Position numbers and translations under genes: made by a program
The notes under the pieces: model-generated
Told to the model about the DNA's origin: nothing
The model's input: only the letters and a program-made list of their open reading frames with translations
The model's database searches: none
From: Promethearchaeota archaeon
Lineage (GTDB): Archaea > Asgardarchaeota > Lokiarchaeia > Sigyniarchaeales > SOKP01
Reading direction: 5' to 3'
Assembly (NCBI GenBank): GCA_004524535.1
Contig: SDNY01000130.1
Coordinates: 1-10,011, forward strand
Length of the DNA stretch: 10,011 bases
Part shown: piece after piece, positions 2,662 through 10,011 of the stretch
Layout: each line of letters begins with the position of its first letter
Position numbering within the stretch: position 1 is the first letter of the stretch

Positions 2662-3984
2662 ATGGTAAATTGTTTAATTGTTGGTCATGGAGCAAGAGAA
2701 CACGTAATAGGTGAATCTCTAGTTCAAAGTGGCGCTAATTTATTTGCCTTTATGAGTTTTAAAAATGCAGGTTTAGAAGATTTAAGCAAAGGGAAAATAA
2801 AAATTCATTCTGAAACGGATTTCAAAGAAATAATTGAATTTGCAAAAGATAAAAAAATTGACTTTGCAGTTATCGGACCAGAAGCACCATTATGCGTGGG
2901 AATTGTAGATGCTCTAGAAAAAAGTAATATCCCTTGTATTGGTCCAAAAATAGAGGCTGCCCAATTGGAAGGGTCAAAAATATTTACCCGAAATTTGCTT
3001 AGAAAATATAAAATTCCCTCTAATATTGAAAGTGAGAGTTTTAACTCAATGGACGGCCTAAAAAGTTATATTAAAGATTTGGGTAAGGAAAATATTGTTG
3101 TAAAACCTGATGGTTTAACTGGTGGAAAAGGTGTCAAAGTATATGGAGATCACCTTTTTTCTATACAAGACATTTTAGATTACTGTCAAGAAATAATAGA
3201 TCAGAAAAGCCCATTTATTCTGGAAGAAAAATGCAATGGAGAGGAATTTACATTACAAACCTTTGTCGATGGGACAAATGTCATTAGAACACCTTTAGTT
3301 CAAGATCATAAAAGAGCATATGAAAATGACGAAGGGCCGAATACTGGAGGGATGGGATCATATTCCATGGAAGATCACCTTATGCCTTTCATTGATAAAA
3401 ATGATGTCGAAATGGCCTTAGAAGACATGACAAAAGTGGTTGCTGCAGTCAAAGCAGAAACGGGTGTAGAGTATAAAGGTTTCTTATACGGTCAATATAT
3501 GAAAACGTCTAAAGGTATAAAATTAATTGAATTTAACGCTAGATTTGGAGATCCTGAAGCAATGAATGTTTTACCTCTCTTAAAGAGTAATTTTGTAGAT
3601 ATTTGCCAAGGAATAATAGACGGGAAATTAACTAATAATGTAGAATTTGAGAAAAAAGCAACGGTCTGTAAATATTTAGCTCCCGAGGGATATCCGGTTT
3701 CACCGAAAAAAGATGAATTAGTAAAAATCGATGTAAATAAAATGGAAAAGATTGGAGCTAAATATTATTACGCTTCAGTTTATAGAGATAATGATAAGAT
3801 CTACACTACTACATCGAGAGCAATTGGAGTCTTAGGTATAGCTGAAAACCTTGAAAAAGCAGAAAAAATCGCAGAACAAGGTGTCAGTTGTGTTGAGGGA
3901 AAATTATTCCACCGAAAAGATGTGGGTACTCAACAATTACTTCAGAAAAGAATTGAGCACATGAATTCAATCTTAAAGAAGTGA
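2662..3984 (+). CDS. purD: Phosphoribosylamine--glycine ligase (GAR synthetase)
   Basis: Motifs GHGAREH, IGPEAPL, LEGSK, VVKPDGLTGGKGV, QDHKRAYENDEGPNTGGMGSYS and EFNARFGDPE. The VVKPxGLTGGKGV and GDPEAMNVL forms resemble archaeal PurD. Confidence 0.98.
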   Translation: MVNCLIVGHGAREHVIGESLVQSGANLFAFMSFKNAGLEDLSKGKIKIHSETDFKEIIEFAKDKKIDFAVIGPEAPLCVGIVDALEKSNIPCIGPKIEAAQLEGSKIFTRNLLRKYKIPSNIESESFNSMDGLKSYIKDLGKENIVVKPDGLTGGKGVKVYGDHLFSIQDILDYCQEIIDQKSPFILEEKCNGEEFTLQTFVDGTNVIRTPLVQDHKRAYENDEGPNTGGMGSYSMEDHLMPFIDKNDVEMALEDMTKVVAAVKAETGVEYKGFLYGQYMKTSKGIKLIEFNARFGDPEAMNVLPLLKSNFVDICQGIIDGKLTNNVEFEKKATVCKYLAPEGYPVSPKKDELVKIDVNKMEKIGAKYYYASVYRDNDKIYTTTSRAIGVLGIAENLEKAEKIAEQGVSCVEGKLFHRKDVGTQQLLQKRIEHMNSILKK

Positions 3985-4070
3985 TTTAGCAAGAATCTTT
4001 ACTGCTATATTATTTTATATTTTATAATAATCATTTTATAATAGTATTATACTTTCTTTTAAATTGAATA

Positions 4071-4556
4071 ATGTCAGAATCTTGGCACTCTAAAAATAAA
4101 AAATTCAACTCATTAATTAAACAGTTATTCCATGCTGATAATTGGCAAAAAAGAGCAGAGGCTGCCCGTGAGCTAGGGTTAATGAGAGATGGAAGAGCTG
4201 TAAACTTGCTCTGTCGTGCACTAAAATCAGAAATAGACAATTTGGTTCAAAATCGAATTATTGAAGCAATGGGCAGGATTGGAGATTGTCGAGCAACTAT
4301 GCGCATTATTGAAAAACTTGAAGAGGATCTTAATCAAGAAACTATTGACAAATATAGAATAATTTACATTATAGAGAGCCTTATGAATATTAAAGATAAA
4401 AGAGCTTTAGCTTCAATTGGTCAATTTTTAAACAATCCTGACAAGGATTTAAAAAAATTAGCAGAAAACGCATTTGATATAATAGAACCAAATTGGCGCC
4501 AAATAGTAAAGGAGAAAAGAAAAGAGAAATCAATAGAGGAAATTTTTAAAATTTAA
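4071..4556 (+). CDS. HEAT/PBS-lyase-like repeat protein
   Basis: Repeated helical pairs: RAEAARELGLMRDGRAVNLLCRAL, RIIEAMGRIGDCRATMRIIEKL, IIESLMNIKDKRALASIGQFL. Confidence 0.85.
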   Translation: MSESWHSKNKKFNSLIKQLFHADNWQKRAEAARELGLMRDGRAVNLLCRALKSEIDNLVQNRIIEAMGRIGDCRATMRIIEKLEEDLNQETIDKYRIIYIIESLMNIKDKRALASIGQFLNNPDKDLKKLAENAFDIIEPNWRQIVKEKRKEKSIEEIFKI

Positions 4557-7845: not shown

Positions 7846-9066
7846 TTATTTTAGATAATTCAACGCAGTAAGGGCAAATATTTTAGTTGTATTTATTAAA
7901 TCTTCAATATATACAAATTCATCTTCAGCATGCACATTATTATCATCTTGAGAAGCTCCTATTAATATAGTCTCAATTCCTCTTTCCTGAAACCAATGGG
8001 CATCTGTTGAGGGCATAAATAATTTAAATTCTCTCTCTTGATTGAATACTACTTCTGTTGATTTTTTCACAGCTATGGCAAAATCGGAATTTTCATCAAT
8101 AATTTGTGGTTCTAATGAAATGGGAATTTGAACTATGATATCTAAATCTGGGTCTTGTTTTTTCAATTCTTCCACATAATTCAAGATTCTTGTTTTTATA
8201 CTTTCAATATCTTGTTCAGGAATAGTATTAATACTACAATGTAATAAACACTTATTAGGGACTGTAGTTATTTTATTTCCTCCATCTATTTGTGCTAAAT
8301 TTACACTACTAACTTTAGCAGTCGAGCCTTTTGGTACCGCATATTTAGTCTCTTTTCTCAGAAATTCCTCCTTTAATTTCAATAAGAAGTTTATAATTTT
8401 AACCATTTTTTCGATAGCATTTATTCCTGAAGATTTACTACGATAAGGAGCTGGTAAGTCTGGGTATCCCAATCCATGAGCTTGTTTTCCATAAGTTATA
8501 AATGTTATATACATTGTCCCACCACAATATCCAAAAGGATAATTACATGGAGCATCCCCTAATAAGCATGCATCCCCTCTTAGAAGTCCCTTATTTAATA
8601 ATAAATCAGCCCCTCTTAATCCACCAGTTTCCTCATCAATAACCGCAGTAAGGATTAATTTTCCATTAAGTTTAATGCCTGCTTCAAGTAATGCTTTAGT
8701 AGCAAAAATCTCTGCTGTTACACTAGATTTATCATCAGAAGAACCACGACCATAGATTTTTCCATTAATTATTTTTCCTCCAAATGGATCTTCTGACCAT
8801 CCTTTAAATGCCTCAACCGTATCTAAATGACCATATAAAATTAGAGATTTATCATCTCCTTCTCCTATTTCCCCTACCACATTGTTTCTTTTAACTTGAG
8901 TTTTTAATCCTAATTCTTTAAAAGCTTTCTCTGTAAATTTACATACCTCCTTGTATTTTCCTGGAGGATTCTCAGAAGGAATCTGTACAATTTGTTGATG
9001 AAATTTTACAATCTCATCCTTCATATTGTCAATTTTATCTAAAATCTTTTTTTCTATCTCTTCCAA
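7846..9066 (-). CDS. M20 family metallohydrolase (ArgE/DapE-like)
   Basis: Motifs YGHLDTV, GRGSSDDKS, DEETGG, GKQAH, NAIEKM, TDAHWF and VHAEDE. TTG start. The substrate cannot be determined from sequence. Confidence 0.92.
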   Translation of the reverse strand: MEEIEKKILDKIDNMKDEIVKFHQQIVQIPSENPPGKYKEVCKFTEKAFKELGLKTQVKRNNVVGEIGEGDDKSLILYGHLDTVEAFKGWSEDPFGGKIINGKIYGRGSSDDKSSVTAEIFATKALLEAGIKLNGKLILTAVIDEETGGLRGADLLLNKGLLRGDACLLGDAPCNYPFGYCGGTMYITFITYGKQAHGLGYPDLPAPYRSKSSGINAIEKMVKIINFLLKLKEEFLRKETKYAVPKGSTAKVSSVNLAQIDGGNKITTVPNKCLLHCSINTIPEQDIESIKTRILNYVEELKKQDPDLDIIVQIPISLEPQIIDENSDFAIAVKKSTEVVFNQEREFKLFMPSTDAHWFQERGIETILIGASQDDNNVHAEDEFVYIEDLINTTKIFALTALNYLK

Positions 9067-9236: not shown

Positions 9237-9697
9237 ATGGTTGACATGAAACTAGCGTCAGAAGTTAAAGGACTTAGAGATAAGGGTTTTGGTGATGACC
9301 CAAAATTAGTTCTCAAAATTTTTGAACTTATGAAGCAAGCATCAGCAGAGATTGATGACTTGCAGGAAGAATTAGAAGATATTGATGAATTTGTTGGACA
9401 AATGGTGGTTGAAGACAAAGATTTTAAGTGGTGGGTGAAAATAGGAGACGGTACTTTTGACTATGGCGAGGGTGAATCATCAGATCCATCTTTCACTATG
9501 TCAGGAAATTGGGAGACAATGGGTGGCCTTATGTCAGGCGAAATGATCAACTAAGTTGTTCACGCCAAATAGATGGCACGAGCGCCTATATGTCCGGAGA
9601 CCTAAAGATCGAAGGTAACCTTCAAGATACTATGGCTTACGGGGAATACCTTGCGTTTGCAGCGGAGACAATGGCAGAGATGGATCCTGACAAATAA
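9237..9697 (+). CDS. SCP2 sterol/lipid-binding domain protein, interrupted; predicted join(9237..9542,9569..9697), 144 aa
   Basis: The first part (KWWVKIGDGTFDYGEGESSDPSFTMSGNWETMGGLMSGE) and the second part in another frame (IDGTSAYMSGDLKIEGNL) together give the SCP2 signature ...GE-xD-xx-AYMSGxLKIEG. They are separated by a 26-nt insert containing a stop codon. Confidence 0.88.
9543..9568 (+). other. Candidate 26-nt bulge-helix-bulge (tRNA-type) intron in an mRNA
   Basis: GGCG (9537-40) pairs with CGCC (9563-66), and each strand is followed by a 3-nt AAA bulge (9541-43 and 9567-69). The inner hairpin is TGATCAAC-TAA-GTTGTTCA. Cutting AA^A in both bulges yields GGC GAA ATA GAT (G-E-I-D) in frame. 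Confidence 0.78.
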
Positions 9698-9706
9698 TCA
9701 AATAAT

Positions 9707-9757
9707 AAAAATAATTATTTTTTTTTTCTTGGTTTTTTATTTCTCTTCTTTTTTTTT
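9707..9757 (+). terminator. Probable archaeal oligo-T terminator region of the SCP2 gene
   Basis: A T10 run (9718-9727) and further T tracts up to 9757 begin about 20 nt after the stop at 9697. That stop belongs to the spliced frame, not the premature stop at 9554. Confidence 0.55.
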
Positions 9758-10011
9758 AGAAGAAAGGAAATTATTGGAATATTTCATTAATCGTTTCTAA
9801 AGATTAAAAAATTAAATTTCTTAGATAAGATGTAGCAAAATATAAAGATGATTTATTAAAATAAACAGTATCAAAGGAAGTTAATCTCTAAATCCTATTG
9901 AACTGAGACTTTTTATATTAAAAATTGATTCGAGTTTTAGAATATTTAAAATTATTTTCCCTTTTTCATTTAATTTAGACTAATTTCGTAAGTTTTATAA
10001 GAGAAAAGTGA

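Follow-up and report, generated by a model that had tools for sequence, protein, structure and literature searches.

A predicted bulge-helix-bulge intron in an SCP2 gene of a Promethearchaeota archaeon and a class of similar short inserts in its protein-coding genes

The stretch of DNA analyzed here, referred to as the window, comprises 10,011 nucleotides (nt) of contig SDNY01000130.1 (C86 in the numbering used below) from the metagenome-assembled genome of a Promethearchaeota archaeon (GCA_004524535.1). It contains a gene of the SCP2 family whose coding sequence is interrupted by 26 nt, and this insert, together with similar inserts elsewhere in the host genome (G000; 3.66 Mb in 198 contigs, 99.11% complete, 4.41% estimated contamination), is the subject of this report. 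SCP2 homologues retrieved at E ≤ 0.001 number 102, nearly all of them uninterrupted and 141–145 amino acids (aa) long, and are labeled by their sources as SCP2 or sterol-carrier proteins of Promethearchaeota/Lokiarchaeota. In the window the gene is read as two open reading frames, 9237..9554 (105 aa) and 9509..9697, the second piece alone scoring 19 bits against the Pfam SCP2 profile, below the cut-off of 21.3 bits. Excision of 9543–9568 joins 102 and 42 codons into one frame of 144 aa, a length like that of the relatives, with the family sequence kept and no residue gained or lost, as an earlier note on this DNA had claimed (Table 1).

The insert and its upstream flank together form a motif of the bulge-helix-bulge (BHB) type, the structure at which the archaeal splicing endonuclease EndA cuts after the second base of each bulge. 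All four base pairs of the central helix (H) are present, the bulges lie at 9541–9543 and 9567–9569, and a flanking helix is provided by the inner helix (h′), with seven of eight pairs and one U·U mismatch at 9547/9559; the TAA of its loop (9552–9554) doubles as the in-frame stop of the unspliced reading. Every coordinate and pairing that the earlier note had given for this motif proved correct on re-reading. Since AAAT is repeated at both ends of the insert (9541–9544 and 9567–9570), five cut registers yield the identical product. The earlier note had rested its case on the coincidence of the predicted cut sites with the boundaries that restore the protein; the BHB register does restore it, but so do all five, so the argument is somewhat weaker than it appeared. 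The motif itself is present in one of the five product-equivalent registers, the one that the bulges predict. In a shuffle test scored over all five registers, a four-pair central helix plus at least seven of eight inner pairs arose in 9 of 200,000 randomized versions of the insert (4.5e-5), and in 3 of 200,000 when all central pairs also had to be of the Watson-Crick type. No ribozyme core of a group I or group II intron was found, the insert being 26 nt long and Rfam giving 0 matches in the window at the gathering threshold.

Table 1. Coordinates of the SCP2 locus and of related features. Window positions count from its first letter; entries for G000 contigs are 0-based on the named strand, e1 being the last base of exon 1.
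Feature	Sequence	Strand	Position	Remark
SCP2 exon 1	window	+	9237..9542	ATG at 9237; 102 codons; Pfam SCP2 profile 3-72 of 101, E 3.4e-5
Central helix H, 5′ strand GGCG (exon bases)	window	+	9537..9540	4/4 G-C with 9563-9566; in both minimum-energy folds
5′ bulge AAA, 3 nt	window	+	9541..9543	unpaired in both folds; predicted cut after 9542
Predicted SCP2 intron, 26 nt	window	+	9543..9568	26 alignment columns without counterpart in 6/6 same-genus orthologues
Inner helix h′ and loop	window	+	9544..9562	TGATCAAC 9544-9551 pairs with GTTGTTCA 9555-9562; TAA loop 9552-9554
Central helix H, 3′ strand CGCC (intron bases)	window	+	9563..9566	pairs with 9537-9540; in both folds
3′ bulge AAA, 3 nt	window	+	9567..9569	predicted cut after 9568
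SCP2 exon 2	window	+	9569..9697	42 codons and TAA stop; Pfam SCP2 profile 74-98
Whole motif with alternative outer helix 9532-9536/9574-9578	window	+	9532..9578	minimum-energy fold
rpl11, G000 copy	L200		160-222	
Insert, 30 nt	C100	-	e1 20429	
Insert, 29 nt	C185	+	e1 15913	
Insert, 30 nt	C52	-	e1 22035	
Insert, 30 nt	C74	-	e1 884	
Insert, 30 nt	C8	-	e1 12500	
Insert, 31 nt	C126	+	e1 25578	
Insert, 29 nt	C65	+	e1 33270	
Insert, 34 nt	C138	-	e1 59507	
Insert, 32 nt	C16	+	e1 3515	
Insert, 30 nt	C180	-	e1 17523	
Insert, 29 nt	C26	-	e1 42336	
Insert, 31 nt	C26	-	e1 42861	
Insert, 30 nt	C32	+	e1 3638	
Insert, 29 nt	C32	+	e1 3749	
Insert, 29 nt	C123	-	e1 63255	
Insert, 32 nt	C113	-	e1 22766	
Insert, 29 nt	C188	-	e1 19803	
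Insert, 31 nt	C103	-	e1 18349	
Insert, 30 nt	C174	+	e1 55722	
Insert, 30 nt	C161	+	e1 about 11854	
Insert, 30 nt	C144	+	e1 21928	
Insert, 30 nt	C104	+	e1 6344	
G008 insert, 31 nt	L130	-	e1 1742	
G008 insert, 31 nt	L169	-	e1 6547	
G008 insert, 29 nt	L101	+	e1 2335	
G008 insert	L106			perhaps
Single in-frame stop	C147	+	12955	0-based stop
Single in-frame stops	C112	-	22163, 24222	0-based stops
Single in-frame stop	C59	-	5725	0-based stop
Single in-frame stop	C95	-	8155	0-based stop
Single in-frame stop	C3	-	7941	0-based stop
Single in-frame stop	C63	+	7093	0-based stop
Single in-frame stop	C138	+	8067	0-based stop

The 26 nt are genomic, as had been proposed. A contig in Logan, built by another assembler from the source DNA run, covers 9363–9892 with 0 differences at a word depth of 46.7, although it is not fully independent of the window because its run may be the source sample of the assembly. 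The 198 contigs, the estimated contamination and the possibility that the best DNA record is the assembly's own sample could raise the suspicion that the insert arose in assembly or sequencing, or that the consensus of the metagenome-assembled genome has captured a rare variant; against this stand the identity of the other assembler's contig, a protein from another source that breaks at the same residue (P0004, below), and the occurrence of the same class of insert in other assemblies (G008, G021 and 46 of 62 rpl11 regions, below). We know of no artefact by which an insert would come to pair with the sequence beside it. The contigs exclude an artefact to the extent that contigs can, and we regard it as exceedingly unlikely.

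When same-genus orthologues were aligned as DNA, six of six lacked exactly those 26 nt, and protein matches were continuous in five of the six genomes. Exon 1 is 82–90% identical to uninterrupted orthologues, and exon 2 differs from the orthologue in the closest relative, G008, by 18 synonymous differences at 25 synonymous sites and 5 non-synonymous differences at 101 sites. A second lineage appears in another data set, where P0004 (104 aa, known as a protein sequence) follows the family sequence to ...GLMSGE and continues with INQLS and a stop; as read from that sequence, it is broken at the same residue as the SCP2 of the window, by different letters. P0004 shares 93% identity with P0003, which is uninterrupted, and only 89% with the SCP2 of the window; the insert-free G008 SCP2 is 90% identical to the latter. 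A paralogous SCP2 gene in a genome of another genus (G021; L034:828-857, contig C29) carries a 30-nt in-frame insert with a TAA, eight codons downstream of the site in the window, in which H has four pairs (822-825/852-855) and h′ 9 bp (z −5.5). Two further SCP2 homologues of 93 aa from other metagenomes, P0067 and P0068, end ...NWE, nine residues upstream of the break in the window; their ends may mark a further intron site in the family.

Candidates for the enzymes required are encoded in the host genome: two genes with an EndA domain (PF01974; C100 31106-31336 and C84 30615-30863, both on the + strand, 107.9 and 70.7 bits, both above cut-off) and one RtcB gene (PF01139; C101, 561 bits). Asgard EndA is described, in the accessible part of the source, as being of the (αβ)2 type, with an L1 loop linked to broad substrate specificity (PMC5829648). 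ARAGORN recognized 12 tRNA genes in the host genome, eight of them with introns; most host tRNA genes are probably too interrupted for recognition, and the count of 12 fits reports of heavily interrupted Asgard tRNA genes, though those reports name other families. In the pathway that we infer for SCP2, exon bases 9537–9540 of the pre-mRNA would pair with intron bases 9563–9566, the intron hairpin would stack on this central helix so that the AAA bulges are exposed on opposite strands, a heteromeric endonuclease built from the two EndA paralogues would cleave both bulges after their second base, and RtcB would join the exons into an mRNA for the 144-aa SCP2 protein. Translation of unspliced RNA would end four codons into the intron. 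Arrival of such an intron would require four bases complementary to the exon directly upstream.

RNA bearing on the gene was found in a metatranscriptome from a different study and sample, in which a 237-nt contig (X4 record 24) aligns to 9375–9636 at ~98–99% identity, with 26 letters absent inside 9545–9578 and five other letters differing. The gap was scattered by the aligner; the mismatches at 9549 and 9569 are what an exact exon-exon junction gives under a scattered gap, so at least two of the five are explicable by a misplaced gap over the spliced form. A third difference, 9586 C>A, falls on a third codon position outside the gap. In two other runs, X2 (DNA) and X22 (RNA), no contig bridged 9543–9568. 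X4 record 24 stems either from a near-identical strain, as spliced mRNA, or from a strain free of the insert, as its transcript. It also bears on translational bypassing, in which the ribosome would hop a hairpin gap in uncut RNA. Bypass elements such as that of T4 gene 60 and the short inserts of yeast mitochondrial genes are, like the SCP2 insert, short hairpin gaps in coding sequence that are absent from the protein, and in SCP2 a stop likewise follows a few codons past the break. Such elements, however, stay in the mRNA, whereas X4 record 24 lacks the 26 nt, and they need matching take-off and landing codons: the last codon of exon 1 is GAA (9540–9542), and the landing side (CAA ATA GAT) offers no GAA or GAG. 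The conserved 4-bp helix between exon and intron and the two 3-nt bulges are, moreover, unneeded for a hop. Bypassing is very unlikely.

The insert class behind the SCP2 intron is a more important result than the intron itself. A motif-first scan of the host genome combined H, 3-nt bulges, an inner helix and a filter for restoration of the open reading frame, with parallel pairing as the control; its first version demanded four contiguous inner pairs, and the intron of the window failed because its U·U is the fourth. A loose motif gave no usable excess over the whole genome (3350 vs 3259 in the control), and inserts of 24–34 nt were the sole length class above control (160 vs 118); among candidates of that class with a counterpart in G008, an exact gap in G008 was found in 6 of 72, compared with 0 of 57 controls. 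At 30% G+C of the host DNA the motif alone is too permissive, and interrupted genes were therefore sought without reference to the motif. To this end 5,109 open frames from 1.94 Mb of G008 (100 stretches, about 60% of that genome), each 60 codons long or longer, were compared with all open frames of the host genome. This census returned 446 de-duplicated split pairs. In 391 there were no extra bases, these being single in-frame stops mostly in spurious frames, and 27 had −8 to +13 extra bases; 22 inserts formed a sharp length peak at 29 nt (6), 30 nt (8), 31 nt (4), 32 nt (2) and 34 nt (2), and five were scattered at 48, 77, 122, 133 and 246 nt.

The 22 inserts of the peak, together with the SCP2 insert of the window and those on C144 and C104, were scored for a BHB at frame-restoring registers against 1000 shuffles each. 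The score reached p ≤ 0.01 in 16 of these 25 and p ≤ 0.05 in 19, and for C103-, C188+ and C138+, all within the length peak, it was no better than in shuffles. Three genes, on C26, C32 and C174, hold two inserts each, one of those on C174 being the 133-nt insert (+ strand, e1 56313, 0-based), which has a four-pair H (CGTG/CACG) and eight inner pairs and may belong to the class despite its greater length. The interrupted genes, named from motifs at the joint as read by us except for Pfam hits, include a class I aminoacyl-tRNA synthetase (LeuRS-like, GGIE|HA at the joint), ribosomal protein S8, adenylosuccinate synthetase (PurA), an AMP-binding acetyl-CoA synthetase (YWQ|TETGG), an ABC ATPase (DEPT|TG), a B12-binding domain protein (GL|DGHDRG), a homologue of ubiquitin-conjugating E2 with a 29-nt insert relative to its orthologue (splicing would restore HP|N), a class I aldolase, and a MoxR-type ATPase whose Pfam AAA_3 match is divided by the insert into 1-88 and 89-131. 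Since about 60% of the relative was compared, the full host genome probably holds about 40 inserts. In the reverse comparison, ~3–4 inserts of G008 lie at sites empty in the host genome, against 22 over the same DNA; the class is thus not peculiar to one assembly, as G008 carries inserts of its own, and the host carries far more of them than G008, a strong asymmetry between sister species. Relative to G008, the ratio of non-synonymous to synonymous substitution rates (dN/dS) amounts to 0.115 over the 1970 codons upstream of the inserts and to 0.096 over the 3084 codons downstream, and with no downstream rise there is no sign of decay behind the breaks, although recent inserts could mask decay. 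A census of paralogues within the genome recovered the SCP2 case of the window and the 30-nt insert on C104.

The ~25 inserts are alike in shape and length and have no common sequence, which argues against an origin from a miniature mobile element (MITE-like), whole or fragmentary. Such an origin would account for the shortness and palindromic form of the SCP2 insert and for the 4-nt direct repeat, AAAT, on either side of it; yet blastn-short searches of the 198 contigs (3.66 Mb) with stretches of 33 and 47 nt returned no second copy, the best other match being 17 nt with one mismatch (E 0.9), and no Rfam family matched in the window. A mobile element is accordingly a highly implausible source of the SCP2 insert.

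Evidence that the BHB shape is maintained comes from the gene for ribosomal protein L11 (rpl11). A 30-nt insert in rpl11 (C188), common to G000 and G008, forms a textbook motif with an outer helix (h) of 6–8 bp (hBHBh′); between the two genomes two G-C pairs of H have become G·U, and the loop and one bulge vary freely. A family-wide search gave an rpl11 match in 125 of 134 species genomes, many of whose open frames stop just upstream of the match. The 5′ regions of 62 loci (L199-L261) were read, 29 of them the best-scoring and 33 picked for short open frames, so that the sample is enriched for inserts. Judged by length, inserts are lacking in 16 regions and number one in 32, two in 11 and three in 3; at least one is present in 46 of 62, and in 13 of the 29 unselected. 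The inserts occupy four or more positions, of which sites A, B and C were judged by visual inspection. Site D, the one given a formal covariation test, lies inside the codons for G-I-N-I-K-D and is occupied in 24 of 63 sequences (22 distinct). All 88 cells (100%) of its central helix in the 22 distinct rows are paired, the changes there being solely G-C to G·U and U-A to U·G, and four of the seven inner pairs show two-sided changes (one of them, for instance, reads A-U in 10 rows, G-C in seven and G·U in three), counts that kinship among the sequences inflates. Overall, 90.6% of cells are paired, compared with 25–44% when partners are slid by 1–3 columns; the observed pairing was reached by 1 of 500 shuffles and the covariation score by 3 of 500, and RNAalifold, unaided, returned the same two helices. 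Even so, both the control with slid partners and the changes on both sides of pairs speak for the BHB shape inside rpl11 being under selection. In five genomes from two other families of the order, rpl11 has no 5′ insert, as its open frames of 167–219 aa indicate. The earlier note had looked to orthologues for absence of the SCP2 insert and for covariation in its helices: the absence was found in six genomes and covariation in the rpl11 class, but the SCP2 copies recovered in further scans lacked the insert.

That the SCP2 insert is an mRNA intron spliced by EndA and RtcB, and a member of a family-wide class, is very probable on this evidence, but several observations weigh against it. The outer helix is weak, as the earlier note had recognized: A9536-U9570 is its sole pair when the 3′ bulge is 3 nt, and only if that pair is counted is the bulge exactly 3 nt long. 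In the minimum-energy fold of 9530–9580 (−12.1 kcal/mol, z −2.0, 10 of 200 shuffles equally good), 9532–9536 pairs with 9574–9578 and a 7-nt 3′ bulge results; in that of 9520–9590 (z −1.95, 12 of 200 shuffles equal), 2 nt are unpaired there, these stretches of 2 or 7 nt reflecting the poor outer helix. Fold energy by itself is unremarkable (z about −2), and with h reduced to one pair the motif is of class HBh′, short of the strict hBHBh′. The motif-first scan, another suggestion of the earlier note, yielded the excess at 24–34 nt and no clear excess over lengths of 14–120 nt with 50/30-codon thresholds (1527 vs 1419 in the control). The distribution of the SCP2 insert, judged from the available sequences, is patchy, since P0004 is closer to the uninterrupted P0003 than to the gene of the window and G008 has no insert; the split SCP2 of the window is the only one among the matches listed for 134 family genomes, and none of 37 loci in a JGI metagenome scan with P0003, nor of 27 loci in a scan of genome contigs, is split at its site. 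Paralogous SCP2 genes are present in the host genome, so the cell might survive without this copy. We infer excision in the organism that carries the insert, the RNA at hand coming from another sample; and the X4 contig, being from a different sample and carrying 9586 C>A outside the gap, may derive from an insert-free strain.

Much of this would suit a young SCP2 pseudogene, in which 26 nt had been inserted by mutational accident and the BHB likeness were coincidental: the unspliced frame stops at 9552–9554, same-genus relatives are insert-free, paralogues could cover the loss, the case for splicing of this transcript is indirect, and exon 2 could look conserved if the insertion were recent. 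Coincidence must, however, be set against the rarity of the motif among shuffles, against the same kind of insert in at least 22 other genes of a nearly complete genome (among them those for LeuRS, S8, L11 and PurA), against the absence of a downstream rise in dN/dS, against covariation in rpl11, and against the interruption of a second lineage, that of P0004, at the same residue. An inactivating insertion is therefore improbable. The claim of a real spliced mRNA intron draws support from the anatomy of the insert, the host enzymes, the six insert-free orthologues and the RNA contig that lacks the insert; the suggestion that many apparently split genes may be spliced is likewise borne out by the dozens with the same kind of insert and by covariation in rpl11.

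Short mRNA introns removed by protein enzymes are familiar from eukaryotes, where IRE1 and RtcB splice HAC1/XBP1 mRNA in a regulated stress response. The predicted splicing of SCP2 resembles that system in its very short mRNA intron, a protein endonuclease that reads shape, ligation by RtcB and a change of frame, and differs from it in the nuclease, which is another one there, and in the stem-loop signals and stress regulation of the eukaryotic pathway. The BHB intron of crenarchaeal cbf5 is reportedly the subject of papers by Watanabe (2002) and Yoshinari (2006). Splicing of this cbf5 pre-mRNA intron in Crenarchaeota was shown experimentally according to the accessible parts of the reports (PMC2738675; Yokobori et al., 2009), and in the literature searched it is essentially the one case of an enzyme-spliced intron in an archaeal protein gene. 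As far as those parts go, cbf5 and SCP2 share a short BHB-defined intron in a protein gene, a link to a hetero-oligomeric endonuclease, and gain or loss between related lineages. Unlike cbf5, which is one gene in another phylum, the present host is an Asgard archaeon, the gene is SCP2 with splicing predicted from indirect evidence, and a partial genome comparison yields about two dozen predicted introns, while a single ribosomal protein gene may carry as many as three.

Non-canonical introns in Asgard tRNA genes, described in the accessible portions of two sources as hBHBh′, HBh′ and hBH types with a median length of 22–23 nt (bioRxiv 10.64898/2026.10.13.758758; PMC11291895), offer a closer parallel: to that extent they agree with the present inserts in predicted enzyme, motif classes and size, and in recent lineage-specific gains without shared sequence families. 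They differ in residing in tRNA genes of Freyrarchaeaceae, Jordiarchaeaceae and Atabeyarchaeaceae, and not in the lineage of the host. No route of arrival was found for them, according to the same portion of one source (bioRxiv 10.64898/2026.10.13.758758), and those portions of both sources contain no mention of introns in protein genes. The novelty that the earlier note had surmised holds for the literature searched, subscription journals and preprint supplements excepted, in which no description of BHB introns in Asgard protein genes was found.

Genomes of this family are probably mosaics of interrupted genes, with dozens of 26–34-nt introns per genome that depend on the tRNA-splicing machinery, that lie in core genes (L11, S8, LeuRS, PurA) at up to three per gene, and whose turnover is so rapid that few positions are common to sister species. 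If so, gene callers systematically misread spliced genes as truncated or frameshifted in these genomes; SCP2 and more than 20 other host genes, read as truncated or split open reading frames, would distort pseudogene counts, completeness estimates and Asgard protein catalogues. Protein genes would be seen to withstand a considerable burden of introns whose removal requires protein enzymes and no spliceosome, in a lineage that adjoins the eukaryotic stem and in genes that include those for ribosomal proteins and aminoacyl-tRNA synthetases. With transcription and translation coupled, splicing of mRNA would have to outrun the ribosome or serve control. In this family, recent gains of introns could also be followed in living organisms, one position at a time.

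Several split pairs proved not to be BHB introns: that on C115 is a single in-frame TAA, that on C135 is 77 nt and AT-rich, that on C39 is the 122-nt case, and those on C137, C28, C54 and C7 are 8–20 nt of low complexity. The other returns of the paralogue census were mostly gene fusions or fissions (HdrA/MvhD-like; C113, C162, C15 and C96) and single in-frame stops. A small GTPase gene on C134 (+ strand, 3511-3700 / 3706-4075, 0-based) is interrupted in frame by 30 nt that hold two stops and a hairpin of 6 bp, with at most three of four central pairs in any register; the insert may represent a relaxed motif or no intron. Eight well-supported genes are split relative to G008 by a single in-frame stop (TAA in five, TGA in two and TAG in one; Table 1), and these could be gene fissions, pseudogenes or cases of recoding. 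The neighbors of SCP2 in the window, a small GTPase of the Ras/Roc family (1088–1738, +), PurD (GARS; 2662–3984, +) and an M20 peptidase (7846–9066, −), are all uninterrupted.

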